Made by a program: the position numbers and the translations under genes. From Eledone cirrhosa (lineage: Eukaryota), in assembly GCA_964016885.1 (NCBI GenBank), contig OZ024750.1, forward strand, positions 21,576,001 to 21,640,000: DNA of 64,000 nucleotides, given 5' to 3'. The notes under the pieces are model-generated. The model did not search any database and was not told the DNA's origin. It saw nothing but the letters and a program-made list of their open reading frames with translations. Within the stretch, counting starts at the first letter, position 1; the number at the start of each line of letters is the position of its first letter. This document shows positions 4,761 through 56,152 of the stretch, piece after piece.

Positions 4761-5008
4761 CTATCTATCTAAGGCGGGTAAAATTCCCGAGATCCATGGA
4801 CGAGTTTTCTCCAGCGGTCTCTGTCCCTCATTATCGTTGCCATGTCCTGCATCTCCAACAGACCAGTGTCTGTCCTGAGGGCATCAACATATTTTAACAT
4901 TGGTCTTCCTCTTCTAGTGTGTCCATGTATGGGAGCATCCCAAAAGTCAGCTCAAAAGTGACACAGAGGAGACTGAGGTTAGCTGGACATGCTCACCGAC
5001 ATCCAGAG
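4761..5008 (-). mobile_element. RTE-clade LINE 3' fragment with inverted 5' segment and 11-bp TSD
   Basis: Minus strand: [53 protein letters not shown] plus a (TAGA) tail. Plus strand 4928-5008: YGSIPKVSSKVTQRRLRLAGHAHRHPE (upstream RTE motif). TATAAGTATAT at 4750-4760 and 5009-5019. Confidence 0.85.
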
Positions 5009-12134: not shown

Positions 12135-12492
12135 GGCTGCAAACTCTGTTAAGAGTATTTTTGCAATCGCTTGTCAGATTCAGATGTGTGACGCTCAAAT
12201 ATGGCTTTTCAAGACTGCAAGAGACTTGCACTCTTTCGCACACTGACAACTATGGATCTCCGTGGCCTGAGGTCTTGCATCAGGTTGCCTGTGAACGCTC
12301 ACAATACCGTGGAGATCATAGTTCACTGGTTCTCTTTGAACATGGCTGCGACTGTGTCTCCTGAGACCAGATTTGCTCAAGCAAATTTTTACACACTCAG
12401 TGCACTTCAATTCAATGGAAACACCGATCGTTTCGAGAGATACACGAGGGTATTGCTTAAAAAGAACCTGCGGCTTCGGAAGCACCCGATGA
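12133..12492 (-). mobile_element. LINE (RTE-like) 3' end with C2H2-type zinc-finger motifs
   Basis: CTECVKICLSKSGLRRHSRSH and CQCAKECKSLAVLKSHI, then a short 3' UTR ending GAGTTTGCAGCCAT plus (TA)n; bounded by (TA)n on both sides. Confidence 0.65.
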
Positions 12493-13805
12493 TATATATA
12501 TATATATATATATGTCACATAAAATTCTGGTCAGGAGTATAGAACTGCTACATTCGAGATATAAAACCTATTATAGGCCTTCCAGTTCAATTGTCCTCAC
12601 ATGGCATTGATCTTGATTAAAAATTTAAAATGCCGATCAATCATAATCACAAAATACCTTGTTGAAAAACGTATAATAATATCATTAGGTCTCTAGGGCC
12701 GAAAACCTTATCTCGATAGTTCTCGAAGAAACAAATTTTCTCTGTTAATTTACGTCGATAAAATTAATACCTGTAATAAAGAGTTCGATTCAGCGGATAA
12801 TATCTCATCCTATCGTAATGTTTTTGCCTTATTTCTAGTGAGATAGAATCAGATTGCACTATACATGTAGCATCTATAGATTACCCCCAAAAAGCATCAT
12901 TTTACGTCGAAATGAGCGATTGTATCTAGTAGAAAACGAAAGAGGGTTAAAACGAGGAAACAATCATCTTTTGTGTAAATCTTTCGTACTGGATAAAGTG
13001 ACGGCTGTCTTTAGAATGTTATTGCTATCAAACGCTTAATCGCAATAAAACAGCATGTGCTATTATTTCCACTGCAAAGTCTGTAACATGCTAGCAATAG
13101 ACTCGTGATTAAATCTTAGAGGGGGAGATTTTACAATATATATAAAATACACACAAAATTGAATTTCCTCCATTGTAGAGTAAAGATGAGTGCGTCAGAA
13201 AAGAGATTAAAGACAATTCTTGTTACATTTACAACAAAAGAAGCAAGTCGAAAATGTAGTCTATTTGACGATCAAAGCTAGCATAAATCTATTAATACAT
13301 AGTCCATTTAATTAGAAGCCATTCTTTCCCAGACTTGTGGACGGTTGTATTTTTGAAAGATTTAAACCAATAATTGTACAGATATTTTTATATATATTTT
13401 GGATATTTTTTATATTACTGTATATTTTTTAAAGAAACATCTACATGAAAATCTTGAAAACATTCTATGTTCTCGGAATCTTTATTCACGTTGTGCATGT
13501 GTCACATCTAAGGTGAATTCGTATGAATAATCAATGATATATACTTTTTTTTTGACAACGAATAATACATTTCCATTTACTTTTCTTCTGGTGTTATATG
13601 TATATATATATATATGTGTGTGTGTGTTTATGTGTGTGTGTGTGTACGTGTGTGTGTGTACTTTTATCTTCCGACTTTACATTTTCAATCACATTCTTTA
13701 CGCGTCTGTCGTAAAGTTAGATTGCACTACATTATTGTATTTCATAGTATTCTTTCTTTTACATAGAGTATCTGAAATGATGTTATATATATATATATAT
13801 ATACA

Positions 13806-18750: not shown

Positions 18751-21029
18751 TCTCATATATATATATATATCTGAGAGTGAGAGACAAATGATAAATACAT
18801 TTCTCTACGTACATATATTTTACCTAGATAAATATATATTACAATGTTTATAGGTTTATTTTTTTATATTTATTTACAGTAAAATTTTTAATATTTTTGT
18901 AGAATATACACAAACGCTTGCTAATTTCACAACATTATAAAACACTTTAAATGTTACCATAGCTTATTATTATGATTATTATTGTTATTATTATTATTAT
19001 TGATCAGTCACTTTGTCGCCATTGATATACTCAGACAACTGTCAATAAATTAAAATTAAAAGTGTTTACTTGATTTGCAATAGATAGAGGTTAACTTCGA
19101 TAGAATTTCTCTTAAACTGTTATTTCTATCATTGTATATTTAGTTATTTTTCTAATGGCCGCTATTAGCGAGAGAAAAGTCAATAAGCAAGCCTTTATTG
19201 TGAACTCATGAATATTTACGAAACAAATTGAATAGAATATAACGAAAGTCTAAACAATTTTATTACGATTTGGCTGTCTAATTTGTTTTATTCTTATCGC
19301 CTTTGTCAATATATATATATATATAAATATTGCTTGCAATATATCTATGATTTATTGGACAAGCAAACATACTTAAGTATTAACAATAGTGTGTATGTTG
19401 TTTCATTTTGAAGTCAATACTAAACTTGATGAAGTACTGGTCAGAGACACATTACACTCAACTTTTAACACAGAATTCATATGCTAAGGCTTTATACGTG
19501 CCATAAACTCAATTTGAGTTTGTATTACTTAAAATACAATATGTATTGTGTCAGATACCATAGAAACATTGATATCACAACATGATTTTCAACCATAACT
19601 TTAAAGTGTTTCTTCTCGCTTGAAGTAAATTATTTCCGCTCTCACTTATTATAAGATATCTATAAAAATAAAGCAAAGTGATAATCAAATGAATTAGAAC
19701 CAGAACAATACCATTTAATAAAGACTATCCTGAACGACATTATATCATGCGTCTCTCCTTTATTTAAGGATAATTTAAGGATCTTATCCCAGGGTCATTT
19801 CTGATTGAGTAGATCTAAGATCAAAGTAATTCCAACCATGATTATCTCATCGTTTTTGTATATCAGGTTCTATATTTTCTGTTTTCTTTCTTTTTTTTTA
19901 ATAGTCAGATATACTTGATGAAATTTGCTTTCTAATCTTTGCAATTCGAATAACTACCTAGAGACTTTGTCGTTGGTTTGCTGTTATTTTCTTGTGATTC
20001 AGATGCTATTTTTGTGATTCGACCGACCACGTAGGAACTTTTTCATCGTTTCATGGTGATCTTTGCATCTATGGATATGTGATCATTCATTTCTTCAAAT
20101 ATGGCGACATATGTGTTAAATATTACTCACAGTTCTTGGGTCCACCAGAGATTGCAATGGGATGGACATCCGCCAGTGTCAACGATGAGTGGAAGTGGCT
20201 GAGCATTTTATATGTACATGTATGTAATACTCAAGTAGCTTCAACTTGACACAATGTGAGAAAGCTGGCCATTAGAATTACACATGCAGTCCATTCGACA
20301 GAAGTTCAAACAGTTATCGTCTACCCTTTTTTACTCACAAGAGTTAAGTCGATGCTAGACTTGCGCATGAAGCCACGCAATAAGATAGAACCCAGGAACT
20401 TATGATTGCGAAGAAACAAACTTCGTAACGATTCCTTCAAGTTGCGTCTACCGGCCAAGGACTATTGTAAAAGACGCGCAGCAAGACACCACGTTTGGCA
20501 ATCAAATCCGAGAACGCATGTTTGCAAGGGGAACTTTTTAACTGCACCGCTAAGCCTGTGTATATCATCTTTCATGAATGCAGCGTTCAATCAGAAATTT
20601 TTGTGTAATCGATCGGAGCTGATAACACTTTTCCATCATTTAAATACAATCTTGTGCATAATGAGCTGAGTAATTGCTCCAATGGGTTTTTCCAAACTTC
20701 CCTTTCTTCATTAAATATGGCATAATTATTGAGTGTCATATGGGTTATCTTATTCGCTTCACTACTTAAAATATCTGTTATATATTTAAATGTAGCCATC
20801 CAGTCTCTTGTTGTGAGTCTTCCGCACTCCACAAATCCCTCTCTGCATTGTTTATTGTATCCCTTAATCAACCATGTCATTTATGAGCAGACGCTGTAAA
20901 AAGAAACTCTATTACTCGCAGTAGTACGAATTATTTTTGCCATTTTTTTTCTAGATTAGTTTTTAATCAGCTCATCATTTGTTATTTACATGTATCATCA
21001 ACTTTATGTAATCTGATACGGTGATACAT

Positions 21030-26244: not shown

Positions 26245-26378
26245 GTCTGAGACACTGACCATCATGGAGCAGGCGCAATTACTTGGTATTACCAATAGTA
26301 AATATATGTGGATAATGTCACACAAATCCATTGGAAGCATGACACGTACACAGAGGTCCTTACCACCCGGTATCTTAG
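26245..26378 (+). CDS. Nmdar2: Internal coding exon of the NMDA receptor NR2/GluN2-like subunit
   Basis: Acceptor ttttctttttag| and donor tag|gtgaga; 134 nt, phase 2-1; (R)SETLTIMEQAQLLGITNSKYMWIMSHKSIGSMTRTQRSLPPGIL(G), matching the E-x3-I-x3-A-x3-G-L/I-T-x3-Y-x-W-I...P-x-G-x-L-G pattern of NMDA receptor amino-terminal domains. Confidence 0.88.
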
Positions 26379-26420
26379 GTGAGATTCTTCAGATATTTAA
26401 TTTAACGTATTTCCTCATGA

Positions 26421-26833
26421 ATAATTGTTTCTACTTTTGGCACAAGGCCAACAATTATCTCAGTGTATTACTGGTGCTTTATTTTATCGACCACTTAAGG
26501 CTGAAAGGCAAAGTTAACCTCGGCTGGATTTGAACTAGACTGTAAAGGGCTATGCTACAAAGCATGGTGTCCGACCCTCTACCGATACTGCCAATCTCTC
26601 GCCCTCATCAATAATGGTTTCTTATATAGGCATAAGGCCAGCAATTTTTGGGGGGAAGGAAGAGTCGATTAAATCGACCCCAGTGCGTGACTTGTACCTT
26701 ATTCTATCGACCCCGTAAGGATGAAAGGCAAAATGAACCTCGGCGGGATTTGAACTCAGATTATAAAGGGGCGTAACTCTATGCTGCAAAGCATGGCCTT
26801 CTACCCTCTACAGATATTGCCATTCCACCACTC
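26421..26833 (-). mobile_element. Two tandem SINEs (short and long form) 42 nt downstream of the exon donor
   Basis: 26421-26605 and 26611-26833, reverse complement of the consensus. Confidence 0.9.
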
Positions 26834-29010: not shown

Positions 29011-29714
29011 ATGATAGGACTGGGGTTCCTATCATTAAATTACCCAACAGACCTCCAACGAGATATACCTTGCAGGAGGCCAGTTAAACCTGCATAGGTG
29101 GGAGCTGTCACACACACACACATATATAGCTGGAATATATAGCTTGGGCCCATTTCCAGCTTGGATGGGGAGCTACATATTCTCTCTAGCATAGTGATTT
29201 GGGTGTTACGATGCTAAATTCATTGGTGCGGTCCATGAACCTGACAGCGCATTGCGCTCTTCAAAAGGATGGTTTATTTCACATTACTTTTCTGATAAGA
29301 CTGGGGTTCATATCATTAAAACACCCAAGAAAGCACATATATGATGCAACCTCGATGAAATTCAGTAGAACATGCTATACATTCTATTTCATAATAACTT
29401 TGAAGGTTCGAATTTGCATTTGGCCAAATCTCTTATCAATTTTCCATGAAGATGAAGTTGTATTTATATTACAGTACGGTCTTCCGTAGCATCGCTATCG
29501 TCATGCAACTTAAAAATCATTATCAAATACTTTGTTAGATCTCCTGTGTCGTTACACGTTTGTAGGCGATTTAGTGCAGTATAAGGTAGACCACCAGGGG
29601 CTATTCTTAATACGTCAGTGTAAAGTCTAATTAATGGCACATTGGTTGTTGGTTGTTCACCAGAGAATAACATAGTGACTTCAGACATATCACAATTAAT
29701 GATTGAAACGAGTA

Positions 29715-30638: not shown

Positions 30639-30676
30639 GTGATTGTGTGTTTCATAGTTTCTTTGTCTGCTCGTCT

Positions 30677-30765
<89 letters not shown>

Positions 30766-30810
30766 TATAGTCAGACGAGCAGACAAAGAAACTATGAAAC
30801 ACACAATCAC
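30639..30810. repeat. Perfect 46-bp inverted repeat around (TA)n(GA)n
   Basis: 30639-30684 is the exact reverse complement of 30765-30810. Confidence 0.95.
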
Positions 30811-30831
30811 CATTTTTATTTTTTGATACCC

Positions 30832-30882
30832 AGATTCCTGATGATTTCTAAAGAATGAAACAGTTCTAGTCCTGTAGAATCT
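30832..30882 (+). ncRNA. Type I hammerhead ribozyme motif (near-complete)
   Basis: Stem I AGATTC/GAATCT; core CTGATGA; stem II T-TTC-taaa-GAA-T; GAAA; stem III A-CAG/CTG-T with an 8-nt loop; GUA cleavage triplet (cut after 30876). The one deviation is U.U at 10.1/11.1. Confidence 0.7.
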
Positions 30883-30894
30883 CTTCTATATTAA

Positions 30895-30940
<46 letters not shown>

Positions 30941-31036
30941 GATTACTATTATATATATATATATATAATAGTAATCTTTCAGAACATTCCATTAAGGGTT
31001 AAAGCAGCGATTCTTTGCTTAAACTTTAATCTGTTA

Positions 31037-31112
<76 letters not shown>

Positions 31113-37060: not shown

Positions 37061-39127
37061 ACATATCTTAACTAAACTCTCAGAATTGGCAGACAAATTA
37101 AAGCGTTGCATTAAATGCGTCACTGTGTCGTTTCGTATCTCATTGCTCTGAGTTTAAATCCCACCGAAGTCAACTTAGTTTTTTTTCCTTTTCAGTCCAT
37201 AGACGGTAGAATAGCGAGAATTGTAACATTGTAAGGCGGGATGGCTTGCATTATCTGTTTGCTCACTTTAAAAGCCATGACCCTTCTGCTAAGATTTGAG
37301 ATAGCCAGATAGTATCAACAATGAAAAGACTAATTGAAGCATAGATTCGTTGGTTGGTCCTTTACGTTTGCCAAGAATTGCAGCAAGTAGATATCAACAA
37401 TGAAAACATCGGTTACTTGATCCTATCTTAAGACCGGTTCCTATTTTCTTTGCATAATGTCTTTATTATATTCATTTCTAAGTCCTTTCATCAATGATTT
37501 CAGTGAGAAATAATTTGTTTTTTATGTTTCTATTTATATTAGTTTTTCTACGTTGTTGATTAGTTTATATGTGCTTATATAAGACATTTTGGCAAGAATA
37601 CTCACATTCCATTGTGACTTAAGTAGCGGCTGCCCAGATTATTTTATTTATTACCCTATCTCGTTGTGAATTCAAATTCCATCGGGACTGAATTTGTTGT
37701 TCATCCTTCTCGGATCGATAAAATACTATATCAATACATTATTGAGGCAATATAATCAACATTCCCTTCTTAAAATAACAGGTTTTGAACCAAAATTAAA
37801 AGCTATAATTAGTATTAGTGATGGTAGTGTTGTTATGCACTCAACCAAAGATGTGTTTCGGAACAGATTACACATCCCAATTCTGTACATTACAGTTATT
37901 TATTTCATCAAACTCAAAGTGGATGACATGCAAGATCTAATTTTTACTGTTTCCTATGCCGTAATCTTGACCTGTTGCAGCATTGCTCACTTCTTCTATT
38001 AATGTCACCACGATTGTTAAGATATTTGGCATTCATATGGTTAGAGATTTTCAATAGTTGAATTGATGGTGTATCGAAAACCCAGCCGATAGCTTAGTGA
38101 TTCGTTTCCACTGACCAGTAATGCATACTGTTTGTTGGAAAGTTCCTTAAATCTTACAAATATGATCTACAAAATAGGAGAGATCTGCTGCTATATTGGC
38201 AAAAACTTTAATAGTTCCCGTTATGTTGTATCCACAGTTTTTGTAGGTCTGATGAATAGGCGATTCGGTCTCAGAACTTCCGACATTCATCTATCTCTGC
38301 CTACATTGTCACTGGATTTGTATCGTCGTTCCGATATTTGGAAATGAAAACGTTTAGAGAACAAATTAAGTGTTCAAATGTGAATAAAATGTTGGGTTAC
38401 TGTTGGAAGTCACTTCCAGGTAGATGGTAAGCTTCAGATAAGTGCTTAATTTGTTTAGAAGAGAAAACATCTGAGATACTGCCCTTAAGATCTGAATACG
38501 ATTAACAAAATATTTAAATGGATTAAGATCACATCCATCACAGAAGCAAGACGGATGAGAGTTCCATGAGGCAGTTGTAGAAAGCCTGACTATTGAAGTA
38601 TTCATATAATAGAGCTGAAGAAGCAATGCTTCTTCATCTCTATTATATAAATGGCTTTGCATTTTAACTGCCAAAAGAAGGACCAACCAATTCAGAAAGG
38701 AAGACGTTCGAAGAAAGAACCCAGAATAGTAGAAACTCTTCTTACAAAAGAAAATATCCATGATGAAAAGATGAAAAGTAGTAGAAAAATTATTACGAAT
38801 ACGTGAGGAAAACTTTAGAGAAATTCTTAAGTATTGAATCCGGAACTATATTCTGCCAAAGGAACCTGGTACTGTCATGGATACCGACTGACAATATCTA
38901 TTTGTTCCTTTCTATGGAGACTAGAAAATTGCTGAGTGGTTCAAAATTAATCACTATTCTTTCTAATCACCATTGACAGACCTGGGAACTATATTTGCAG
39001 TGTTTTTTGTAGTTTATTTTTCTATTAGATTGCGAGTACTCTTTGTAATATTTATGCAGTGCCTAATACTGTATAACTGTGCTCGGTAATGCAGTGACAA
39101 CACAGAATAGAAATAAGATTAATAACA

Positions 39128-39888
39128 ATAATTGTTTGTACTTTTGGCACAAGGTCAGCAATTATCCCAGTATATTACTGGTACTTTATTTTATTTTATC
39201 GAGTCTGTATGGAATGGATGAAAGACAAGACTAACCTCGGCGCAATTTGGTAGAAATAATTGTTTCTACTTTTGGCACAAGGCCAGCAATTATTCCAGTG
39301 TATTACTGGTACTTTATTTTATCGACCCCGTAAGGATGAAAGGCAAAGTTAACCTCGGCGGGATTTGAACTCAGTCCGTAAAGGGACGTAACTGGGCTGC
39401 AAAGCATGGCGCCCGACCCTCTACCGATACTGCCAATTCACCGCAATTTGGTAGAAATAATAATAGTAATAATTGTTTCTACTTTTGGCACAAGGCCAGC
39501 AATGACTCAGTACATTACTGGTACTTTATTTTAACGACTCCGTAAGGATGAAAGGCAAAATTGACCTCAGCGGGATTTGAACTCAGATCATAAAGGGACG
39601 TAACTCTATGCTTCAAAGCATGGTGTCCGGCTCTCTACCGATACTGCCAATCCACCGCCCTGGTAATAATTGTTTCTTATATAGGCACAAGGCCAGCAAT
39701 TTTGAGGGGAGGGGAAAGTCGATTAAATCGACCCCAGTGCGTGACTGGTATTTTATTTTATCAACCCCGTAAGGATGAAAGGCAAAGTTCCCCTCGGCGG
39801 GATTTGAACTCAGACCGTAAAGTACCGTGACTCTATGCTGAAAAGCATGGTGTCCGGCTCTCTACCAATACTGCCAATCCACCGCCCT
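39128..39888 (-). mobile_element. Array of four SINEs
   Basis: Copies start at about 39128, 39258, 39470 and 39665; the second is flanked by CGCAATTTGGTAGAAATAAT (39241-39260, 39442-39461). Confidence 0.9.
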
Positions 39889-45139: not shown

Positions 45140-45252
<113 letters not shown>

Positions 45253-45504
45253 TAAAATAACAGATTAATGTTTAAGCAAAGATTCGCTGCTTTCACCCTT
45301 ACCGGGATCTTCTGAAACTAACAAAGTCAATCTGTGAACGCAGAAGTGAATATTTCAAAAAATGTTGCAATCGGGGGAAGACAGGAGGACGATACTTTGG
45401 TTCGTGGAAACGTTCCCTGGCAAAGAACGGGAAAAAACGAATATAATACGTCATTATTTGGAGCGGTGAAAAACAATTACACGCAAAGACAAAACCACGT
45501 TTAT

Positions 45505-45946: not shown

Positions 45947-48449
45947 AATATAATGCAAGTATATATATGTATATACGCATGTGTATATATGTATAGGCAT
46001 ATATACATATGAGAGAGTGAGTGAGAAAGATAATAGTTAAATTGCTGTATACCTGTGTGTGTGTGTGTGTGTTTTGCTGTTTATATGTTTGTATGTGTTA
46101 TTGAATCAGCATGTGTGAATACAAGCGCCATTGTAGCACAACCTGAACAAATTTAATTTAAATAGTCTTAAGAAATGCTTTCGAGATAAATCTTACTGCC
46201 TCGTGAGAAATGAGCATTTTATCATATTTCGTTTTATTTTATTTCATTTATTTTTCTCCTAAGCATAATAATACGATGAGTGGTAGCTGGATAAGGAGAA
46301 TTGAAATTTACAGGTCGACAATGAGGTAATTCTAAATCCGAGTAGTAATGGTTCTCTCACTACTCTTCACAAGTTGTCAAATTATCGAGCGCCATGATGG
46401 TAGCTGAAACAGCAATGCATCTACTTAGAACTTAGAAAGGAAGTCAATATAAACTCAATAGAGAAACTGTAAGGATGTCGAGGGAGAAACACAAAGAAAG
46501 ATTCTGAAAATAAATGTATTATTTCTTCACTGAAGCTGTCCGAGAAAGAGGGATATTGTCAAACATTGACATGATAACGGCTGAAGAACAAAAATAAATT
46601 AATGAATAAATACATACATACAAGTATTGAATTATTATTTACATCTGAGAAGCTGATAGATAGAGAATTTTATGTTTAACAAAATCGGATGTAAATGGGC
46701 AGAGTCGTTAGTGTGTTGAGTAAATGTTTCGTTATATGTTTCGGCTTTTCATGCCCTGTTTTTAAATCCCACTGAAGTTAACAATGCTTTTCGTCCTTCC
46801 GGGGTCGATGAAATAAAGTACATAGCAATGTGAGGAATTGTTGAAATGTCAGACGTGATGCTTTGCATTATTTGATCCGGCTCCTTCAGATTTCGGCTCG
46901 TCAAACTCCGTCTTCTGCCAGGAATTGCTTCCGGCTGATAGTATCAACAATGGAAAAACCAATGGAATCATTGTTTCCTTCGTTTGCTCTGACTATCAGC
47001 TTCTTTCTTTTCTTTAACGCTTAGCAGTACTGAAACTTAAGGATTGTAGATCAGCAAAATCGATTGAACGTTGGACAAAATGGTATGTTTTTACTTTGTT
47101 TTGCATTCAACGCGTCTAGTCATTCACTTCTACTCCTTTAATGTTGTTAGACTAAGCACCAATTGATTAATTCCCATAAAACTGCCTCACCCTGTGCATA
47201 TGTCGCAAATCAATATTCTTGATTATCTAAGTTTTTAGTTCAAATCATCCTTGGCTTCCAATTCACTTTTACCAGTTGAAGCTCATGAACATAAAACATG
47301 TATCGAGGTCTTTTGAGTCGATTATATCACATAACCTTACAAGGCTCCGAATTTACATCAATAACCGTGTTCACCCTTTTTCCTTCTCCCAGTTTGATAA
47401 AATAAAACGACGTTATGTCCGTGGGTCTGTCCAATCGACTATAGACAGCCTTACAACGTTCCGACCTTAGGTCAAAATATAACAAAAATCAATATTTACA
47501 TTCGGAAATTGTTGTTATTGCAGTATTCACTGGTTTTGGAAATCTTATAATGGTGTTTCCATTGTTGGCAACTTCAACAAGGAAAGGGGAAGTGCTTTCA
47601 GGATAACTGTGTGATAATGCAATTCTTATTTCTAAGGATGGTTGTCACAGTCGGTGGTCGTTACAGAAACCGATGTATTTACGGTGCTTAGGCTATCACA
47701 CATGCTATATTGTATTGATAGCAAAGGCAACACAAGCTGACTTTGTTCGTCTAGATGTAAACAAGAAACAGGGAAAACTAATGTTCCTTGCCATTTTGAA
47801 ATATTTAAATCTGCAGCCATTGATTGAAGAATGTTTCCGAAGATCCCGAAAAAAGGTGAAAGCAAAAGTTGTTTGCACAAACTTTTAATCTGTTCAAATT
47901 ATAAACATTCATTCTACAGTTTTATATATATATTGTTGCATGTATATGTTTTCGGCAGAGCTGTTCTGGCCTGGAATAGGTCGCAGGTGGTGGATAGTGA
48001 CACGACCACGAAATAGGGTTAGTTTCGATATGCGTGAGCTCCTGTCGGATGAATAAGGAAAATTGACCACACGGCGGCAAGCTACTAGGAGAGATTGAGC
48101 AATGGGTGACACAGTTAGCTCTCAGCAGAACAGATGTAGTTAAAACGAGTTGAGTAAAAGGGCGCCTCTAAAAAGATTTACACGTCACGGGCCTCAGAAA
48201 ATTACCAAATTGGTAATTGGTGCAAATAAGAACACCAAAACTTGCTGTATGGTCAGATTGAATAATAACAAATATACGAAGGTTTCCTGGGATGCGTTGT
48301 AATGAGAGGACATACCAAATCGGTTATCTAAGTTGTTCAATCTGTATGGGTTATCTGATATATTGTTGTTTTTCTCGGTTCCTTTCTTAAAAAGTGGTGT
48401 TCATTTTAGCTGTGTTTTCGACTAGGCTCTGTTTTGTGAAGTAAGATAT

Positions 48450-55518: not shown

Positions 55519-55705
55519 AATAATTGTTTCTACTTTAGGCACAAGGCCAGCAATTACCCAGTGCATTACTGGTACTTTATTTTATCGACCCCGTAAGGAT
55601 GAAAGGCAAAGTCAACCTCGGAGGGATTTGAACTCAGATCGTAAAGGGACGTAACTATGCTGGAAAGCATGGTGTCTGACTCTCTACCGATACTGCCAAT
55701 CCACC
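55519..55705 (-). mobile_element. SINE (same family)
   Basis: Consensus match; TTAAAATAAT flanks. Confidence 0.9.
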
Positions 55706-55788
55706 ATTAAAATAATAAATCAAGAAAAGAAATACAAACCGATTTGAACCGATTTGAACACATATATGTATATATCTGTGTTTAGCTC

Positions 55789-55824
<36 letters not shown>

Positions 55825-55895
55825 GGGGTAACTACAGTAAGTAAGGTATTCAATGCACAGTAGAACTGTTTGAATCGGGACAAATCATTAGGAAG

Positions 55896-55945
55896 GGCTT
55901 CTGATGATTTCTACCGATTAAGACAGTTGTACTCCTGTAGAAGCC
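55896..55945 (+). other. Decayed paralogue of the 30832 hammerhead
   Basis: GGCTTC-TGATGATTTCTA..ACAGTTGTACTCCTGTA-GAAGCC followed by ttctatattaaa as at 30884; GAAA is mutated. Confidence 0.55.
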
Positions 55946-56152
55946 ATTTCTATATTAAATATATATATATATACGATATTAAACAAATGGAAACTATATT
56001 TATAAAACCATATTTATTTCATTATACATATTTCATATATCATATATCGTATATCTACTCCAAAAACTTGTCGAGTGCTTTATATCAGTTATAAAATATT
56101 TACTTGTTGTAACCCAACAATTTTAAATAAAACTTTTGCATATATATATATA

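Follow-up and report, generated by a model that had tools for sequence, protein, structure and literature searches.

The hammerhead ribozymes closest to the one reported here belong to animal retroelements and to amniote introns, as far as the sections of the literature drawn on below describe them. Non-LTR retrozymes consist of units of 150-450 bp (Cervera and de la Pena 2020, PMC7229834) and of families of 51-972 bp when predicted in silico (Li, Clavereau and Pollet 2026, bioRxiv 10.64898/2026.07.22.740005); the latter preprint argues that retrozymes of this type are non-autonomous Penelope derivatives and finds that ~ 42-44% of Xenopus retrozyme copies overlap introns. Among them, axolotl HHR_Amex2 combines a type I topology, a 6-pair helix I, a U.U at the base of helix II and a helix III of two pairs and a tetraloop, in a family with very many copies and tandem forms; its monomer cleaves 22% in one hour and its dimer much better, and monomer cleavage rates of ~ 0.8 and 0.1 per minute are given for the type I motifs of coral and mussel, respectively (PMC7229834). 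Hammerheads of Penelope pseudo-LTRs possess a palindromic helix III and occur as dispersed, truncated solo copies and opposite-strand pairs in (TA)n targets (Cervera and de la Pena 2014, PMC4209133; PMC8557442), and the minimal form of the Penelope termini has a helix II of 7-8 pairs, a helix I of 4-5 pairs, an extra base after A9 and a G10.1-C11.1 pair (PMC4209133). Endonuclease-bearing Penelope-like elements leave inverted 5'-truncated copies and an optional tail of 30-40 bp, with a bias towards microsatellites (Craig et al. 2021, PMC8557442 and preprint; PMC11167929). The intronic hammerheads of the amniote genes RECK, CTCL and DTNB are conserved at their loci across birds, reptiles or mammals (PMC6155905). 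Lastly, U10.1-U11.1 is a described natural hammerhead variant, with which cleavage proceeds further than with other mispairs (Perreault et al. 2011, PMC3088659). Judged by titles and the first lines of abstracts, no paper among those listed on octopus hammerhead ribozymes concerned the family described below; cephalopod families may figure in the tables of the retrozyme preprint and in the supplements of PMC4209133 and PMC8557442.

Here, we analysed a window of 64 kb (the whole stretch of DNA presented above), in which a hammerhead motif at 30.8 kb had been noticed in a putative intron. Our favoured reading, held with good confidence, is that this motif is a young, truncated and solitary copy of an abundant hammerhead repeat, likely inserted by Penelope-type machinery into a (TA)n run. 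The ribozyme of this repeat is predicted to act mostly as a pair in tandem transcripts, so that the lone copy would cut the host pre-mRNA slowly or not at all. The elements of the motif are the following:

30832..30882, plus strand: type I hammerhead motif with an intact 13-nt core and U.U at 10.1/11.1, found by descriptor scan
30876, plus strand: predicted cleavage nucleotide A17, with the cut 3' of it, from its position in the motif and the hammerhead consensus as given in PMC3088659
30821..30828, plus strand: 5' strand of distal stem I, 8 pairs with 30889..30896, one of them G-U
30889..30896, plus strand: 3' strand of distal stem I, pairing with 30821..30828

Each part named in the preliminary description of this locus (stems, CUGAUGA, GAAA and GUA) was found where it had been placed. 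On the plus strand, stem I comprises 6 Watson-Crick pairs (30832-30837/30877-30882) and is followed by CUGAUGA (30838-30844), U10.1 (30845), a stem II of 3 pairs with a UAAA loop (30846-30848/30853-30855), U11.1 (30856), GAAA (30857-30860) and a stem III of 4 pairs, including A15.1-U16.1, closed by an 8-nt loop (30860-30863/30872-30875), up to the GUA triplet that ends at 30876. The core CUGANGA/GAAA/NUH is thus present in type I order and surrounded by three helices of 6, 3 and 4 pairs, with the documented U.U variant at 10.1/11.1 in place of the usual pair (usually G-C). That description was nevertheless incomplete, as it contained neither the related copies nor the 8-pair distal stem I, which is part of the fold of lowest energy predicted at 37 °C for 30819-30898. 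This copy thus has a distal stem I as well as an internal loop, and a tertiary contact between loops 1 and 2 is conceivable.

The motif was the sole match in the window, on either strand, to three hammerhead descriptors. In sequences simulated with an order-3 Markov model trained on the 49,231 non-microsatellite bases of the window, all-Watson-Crick stems of at least 4/3/3 pairs gave 0 matches in 100 Mb, the observed stems counting 6/3-4/3 pairs when A15.1-U16.1 is left out of stem III. When the requirement was relaxed to 4/2/2 pairs and G-U was admitted, 24 matches were obtained in the 100 Mb (0.024 per window). The Rfam hammerhead models, proposed as a first check of the motif, returned no match to it even at E up to 10; another Rfam search gave no hammerhead among the best 150 of 155 matches, and none was found at gathering score over the whole 64-kb window. 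Matches to Rfam microRNA families in the window were rejected as microsatellite artefacts. The folding energy of the lone motif was no better than that of shuffled sequences (z 0.20), and a 26-nt stretch of the core had no exact match in metagenome contigs. Taken on its sequence, 30832-30882 is a genuine type I hammerhead motif with a predicted cleavage site.

This motif belongs to a repeat family (hereafter family 1) with three copies in the window, a profile built from these three retrieving no fourth one:

30809..30898, plus strand: family-1 copy 1, extent given by contig cover; truncated
55896..55960, plus strand: family-1 copy 2, found by self-comparison (81% identity over 59 nt, E 6e-10)
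55823..55896, minus strand: family-1 copy 3, inverted and truncated, with a damaged core, fused to a one-sided tail at 55823-55860

The core of copy 2 is also damaged, with one C lost and the GAAA altered. Public contigs at least 80% alike to 30766-30899 numbered 5,146, 5,585 and 4,914 in runs X1, X2 and X3, which all derive from one sample, whereas X4, a run from another study, gave 6; contig counts are not copy numbers, and summed depth was rejected as an unsound measure of these, yet thousands of matching contigs are incompatible with a single-copy motif. The run search gave 24 listed runs, one of which held half or more of the query words; contigs were counted in X1-X4, and X5-X24 have small word shares. 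Contig cover begins at 30806-30810 and is highest over the hammerhead core, with zero depth in X1-X4 over the inverted flank (30766-30805), a hole which in itself proves nothing as to polymorphism or misassembly. The 30.8-kb copy is truncated, since longer members run past both of its ends in X1-X3, upstream of 30809 in 7-15 contigs per run and downstream of 30898 in 25-39. In the loose ends before 30809, a TATA-like sequence stands in these longer copies immediately before the position that corresponds to the 5' end of this copy.

Abundant contigs differ from the 30.8-kb copy at 2 of 90 bases (X4, depth 162) and at 3 of 66 bases (X3, depth 154). At these divergences, the computed chance that a 13-nt core survives intact is 0.75 and 0.55, respectively, and the intact core is therefore no sign of selection at the locus. 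All 6 pairs of stem I are kept in both full family-1 copies through two double changes (A-U to G-C and A-U to C-G), and such compensatory changes indicate that the hammerhead fold was under selection within the family. Loose ends of contigs hint at subfamilies with another stem I; as their agreement is low (0.41-0.62) and their register ambiguous, they were not counted as covariation. At no position did an alternative letter reach 5% of the depth in the matched contigs, which are biased to copies 80% alike; the absence of a variant is not proven sameness.

These data indicate that the 30.8-kb copy is a young one of an abundant repeat, not a conserved singleton. It resembles the RECK, CTCL and DTNB hammerheads as a type I motif in a probable intron, probably of retroelement origin (PMC6155905), but differs from these locus-conserved ribozymes as a young member of an abundant family. 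The isolation from any young and abundant repeat that characterizes amniote-type domestication is thus lacking at this copy, and a domestication or regulatory role is not supported for it.

The surroundings of the copy hold further traces of its insertion:

30899..30935, no strand: (TA)n run directly after the copy, likely insertion target
30639..30683, no strand: left arm of an inverted duplication (45 nt, 45/45 identical) of the flank around (TA)n(GA)n
30766..30810, no strand: right arm of this inverted duplication, 45/45 identical, ending where the repeat copy starts

A (TA)n run lies directly 3' of four of five insertion sites and ~ 20 nt away at the fifth, in a window where (TA)n is common; the output of a repeat finder on 29-33 kb was likewise dominated by (TA)n. 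The perfect 45-nt inverted duplication at the 5' end of the copy suggests a recent event. Perfect fold-back duplications around (TA)n were observed at the 5' ends of both neighbouring copies (30639-30683/30766-30810, 45/45; 30936-30981, 46/46), and these possibly result from fold-back synthesis during insertion. A 36-nt direct repeat, 89% identical, also occurs at 29012-29047 and 29293-29328, 281 nt apart.

The 55.8-kb site starts with (TA)n, followed in turn by a one-sided tail of 38 nt, the inverted truncated copy, the forward copy and (TA)n again, so that the inverted 5'-truncated copy and one-sided tail of Penelope-type insertions are both found at this member; compared by eye, its tail agrees with the optional downstream extension of longer family-1 copies at 12 of 15 bases, all differences being transitions. 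The site at 30.8 kb has no tail, and what is inverted there is DNA of the flank. The link to Penelope-like elements or retrozymes drawn in the preliminary description holds. Family 1 shares with the Penelope pseudo-LTR hammerheads of PMC4209133 and PMC8557442, as described in the consulted parts of these papers, the dispersed truncated solo copies, the opposite-strand pairs, the palindromic helix III, the (TA)n targets, the inverted 5'-truncated copy and the one-sided tail. By contrast with endonuclease-bearing elements, no reverse transcriptase (RT) or GIY-YIG frame adjoins the 30.8-kb copy, no remnant of either was found in the 160 of 449 window reading frames that were scanned, and the RT plus GIY-YIG frame between terminal repeats of an autonomous Penelope-like element is likewise missing from these 160 frames.

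The ribozyme itself lacks the long helix II, the short helix I, the extra base after A9 and the G10.1-C11.1 pair of the minimal Penelope motif. Its geometry (6-pair helix I, short helix II) fits the canonical retrozyme type instead, and the 6 pairs of helix I, the 4 positions of helix II and the closing stem I of non-LTR retrozyme hammerheads are all recognizable in it. It is alike HHR_Amex2 in type I topology, in the 6-pair helix I, in the U.U at the base of helix II, in a helix III somewhat stronger than the newt type, in very many copies and in tandem forms in the family, from which it differs as a solitary and truncated copy and in a helix III of 4 pairs with an 8-nt loop (compared with PMC7229834 as far as consulted). 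The head-to-tail units of retrozymes are not found at this solitary copy, and in the family they appear as joints 76-78 nt apart in three runs of one sample, at a small share of the depth; this spacing is below the 150-450 bp of retrozyme units (PMC7229834), and a size of 77 nt alone is not new, given the in silico units that go down to 51 bp. The likely assignment from these features is thus to the type I hammerhead motifs, within a non-coding repeat mobilised by Penelope; we do not attribute the locus to an autonomous element or, in the strict sense, to the retrozymes. The enzymes that mobilise family 1 would be a reverse transcriptase of Penelope type and a GIY-YIG endonuclease, both provided in trans, and the 30.8-kb copy was likely inserted into its (TA)n run by such Penelope-type retrotransposon machinery.

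Other repeats and frames of the window include a frequent SINE-like family on both strands, with recurring translated motifs (e.g. 26420-26830, 39070-39830 and 55520-55710), and a probable LINE remnant at 12198-12530 on the minus strand, whose frame is C2H2 zinc-finger-like (Pfam E 0.0015-0.019, below cut-off). A frame at 4772-4951 on the minus strand, without any Pfam match, resembles a LINE C-terminus and is presumably a LINE remnant as well. A 97-codon open frame at 20590-20880, also on the minus strand, has a protein-like composition and no convincing Pfam match.

A second and unrelated hammerhead-like repeat (family 2) was observed in the window at 30977-31041 (plus), 45250-45345 (minus) and 47808-47903 (plus). 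It is built of a proximal and a distal stem I, a C-rich/G-rich stem II and a stem III of at least 4 pairs; all three copies have an altered core, with A or C at position 4, decay having gone further in the one at 31.0 kb, and two of the three copies end at (TA)n. Four of the six hammerhead-like copies of the window thus lie on the plus strand and two on the minus strand, and only the one at 30.8 kb has an intact core. The preliminary description would have counted a lack of related copies with an intact core elsewhere in the genome against its reading: relatives abound, the other two of family 1 in the window being core-damaged.

All six copies, three of family 1 and three of family 2, carry U.U at 10.1/11.1. 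The mismatch had been regarded as the only, private defect of the 30.8-kb motif; being common to both families, with published natural precedent, it is not one, and we regard it as a family trait, not as a lesion awaiting repair. It is the same mismatch at the base of stem II as in the natural U10.1-U11.1 hammerheads of PMC3088659 (as far as consulted), here fixed in two repeat families of one animal genome.

The question of monomer or dimer concerns the strand of helix III:

30860..30875, plus strand: helix III strand, a near-palindrome of which 12 of the 16 positions can pair with another copy (-12.8 kcal/mol for the homoduplex, -1.4 for the hairpin)

The centre of the helix III loop is CUAG at 30.8 kb and GUAC at 55.9 kb, both palindromes with a homoduplex of -12.8 kcal/mol; in a modest control, 105 of 840 loop permutations paired equally well (12.5%), and with two copies compared the backing for the palindrome is thin. 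Modelled alone, the hammerhead fold lies 3.4 kcal/mol above a competitor that pairs the 3' strand of stem II with loop III, with a probability of ~ 1e-3, falling to ~ 1e-5 with flanks, and stem II is the least populated helix in every fold model (probability at most 0.017). In a tandem pair folded without constraint at 37 °C, both stems I and a 12-pair helix III form, and the junction hammerhead reaches a probability of 1.3e-2 versus 7.3e-4 for the solo copy (18-fold). At 20 °C, the ratio is similar (2.3e-3 versus 1.5e-4), but without constraint the pair adopts another fold than the double-hammerhead scaffold. Formation of the double hammerhead in full is a rare event at either temperature (1.8e-4 at 37 °C). 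These nearest-neighbour models rank forms and predict no rates, and low fold probabilities are no proof of inactivity, because tertiary contacts are omitted and no active hammerhead served as control. The contrast initially drawn with dimer-type motifs is not supported in view of the near-palindromic helix III and its covarying centre, the modelling favouring the paired form.

In the contigs of X1, X2 and X3, all from one sample, head-to-tail joints of 76-78 nt were identified; among the matches listed for X1, their depth amounts to at least ~ 1,000 units versus 140,000-530,000 at the ends concerned, that is, a small minority. These joints, which fall on 30818-30896, have the appearance of genomic arrays in which each unit contains hardly anything besides the hammerhead. 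Multimeric RNA of the element would be processed by a double hammerhead joined through helix III. The 30.8-kb copy has no intact partner in cis, the closest other member of family 1 lying 25 kb off in a damaged state, and it would be weakly active, given the U.U below a 3-pair A-U-rich stem II, the competing fold and the missing cis partner. Its 4-pair helix III is longer than in most type I motifs of animals, which have 1-2 pairs there, and slow cleavage as a monomer in vitro is quite possible, with about an even chance.

The alternative that survives best concerns the possible host gene, for which one exon was proposed:

26245..26378, plus strand: candidate exon resembling a glutamate-receptor amino-terminal domain, from splice signals and a weak domain match

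This candidate has proper splice signals and 44 whole codons; its Pfam match to ANF_receptor (E 0.025-0.031) is below cut-off and its sole PDB match is GluN1 at E 1.6. A word-index search for homologues found nothing, Atlas gave no usable match, and an exhaustive homology search returned one repetitive and unrelated protein, which was rejected. No receptor domain was detected in 16 of the 24 further exon candidates of the window and no second exon was found. An ionotropic glutamate receptor gene is a plausible host on these grounds, so that, of the intron of an NMDA receptor gene first proposed, the shared plus strand of exon and hammerhead stands, whereas the identity of the gene is weak, with a single exon and an ANF_receptor match below cut-off. 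If the lone copy folded as a monomer, it could cut the nascent pre-mRNA after 30876 and influence the processing of the host receptor transcript, by domestication or incidentally. This would agree with the candidate exon lying 4.45 kb upstream on the same strand, with a long intron that would give time to cut (the remaining 37 kb yielded no exon downstream), with the 6-pair stem I, 8-pair distal stem and 4-pair helix III around the only intact core among the six hammerhead-like copies, and with the cleavage that U.U permits beyond other mispairs (PMC3088659, in the part consulted). However, an intact core is expected without selection in a copy of an abundant young family, the fold is disfavoured by 3.4 kcal/mol and even less probable in context than alone, hammerhead-like copies occupy both strands, the amniote cases were recognized by a cross-species conservation (PMC6155905, likewise in part), and the identity of the host gene is weak; we thus consider such cutting improbable. 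The 30.8-kb copy is probably ordinary debris and not a regulator of the possible host receptor gene, for which the insertion would be neutral.

Slightly less probable again is a hammerhead that is dead or irrelevant throughout the family, disabled early by U.U and a weak stem II, the repeat being propagated either passively, like a satellite, or as a terminal stub whose parent element has no need of cleavage. The missing Rfam match and the sparsely populated stem II are compatible with such a loss, as is the anole Penelope-like element that inserted in vitro without cleavage and showed no RNA ends at the site (PMC11167929, as far as consulted). The compensatory changes in stem I and the maintained palindrome argue against it, as do the recurrence of U.U in the unrelated second family and in active natural motifs and, within the bias of the matched contigs noted above, the lack of any alternative letter at 5% of the depth. 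Chance resemblance to a hammerhead, which the Rfam result and the unremarkable folding energy might have suggested, is effectively refuted by the simulation, whose descriptor was looser than the observed motif, and by the covariation of stem I in a related copy, with a second family of like architecture in the same window, and its probability is negligible.

We therefore retain the reading of a young, solitary copy of an abundant, probably pair-cleaving repeat. Hammerheads of retroelements scattered in animal introns have already been described, and the 30.8-kb case is ordinary in this respect. Its value is modest and of interest to specialists: two unrelated families of one genome are fixed for U.U at 10.1/11.1, and a helix III that is long enough to look monomeric, yet keeps a palindromic centre, offers a clean construct for the question of when a partner is needed by an animal hammerhead. 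A more far-reaching scenario, which we consider very improbable, is that the hammerhead-only tandem arrays of 76-78 nt would be transcribed, cut as double hammerheads and closed into ribozyme-only circles, which would anneal to solitary intronic copies by way of the helix III palindrome and trigger cutting of host pre-mRNA in trans; the existence of circles of about 77 nt, taken by itself, is less improbable, though still rather unlikely. Should the 77-nt arrays give circles, these would be among the smallest natural self-processing RNA circles, and cutting of a glutamate-receptor pre-mRNA by the lone copy in neurons, if it took place, would represent a rare direct action of a ribozyme on a host gene.
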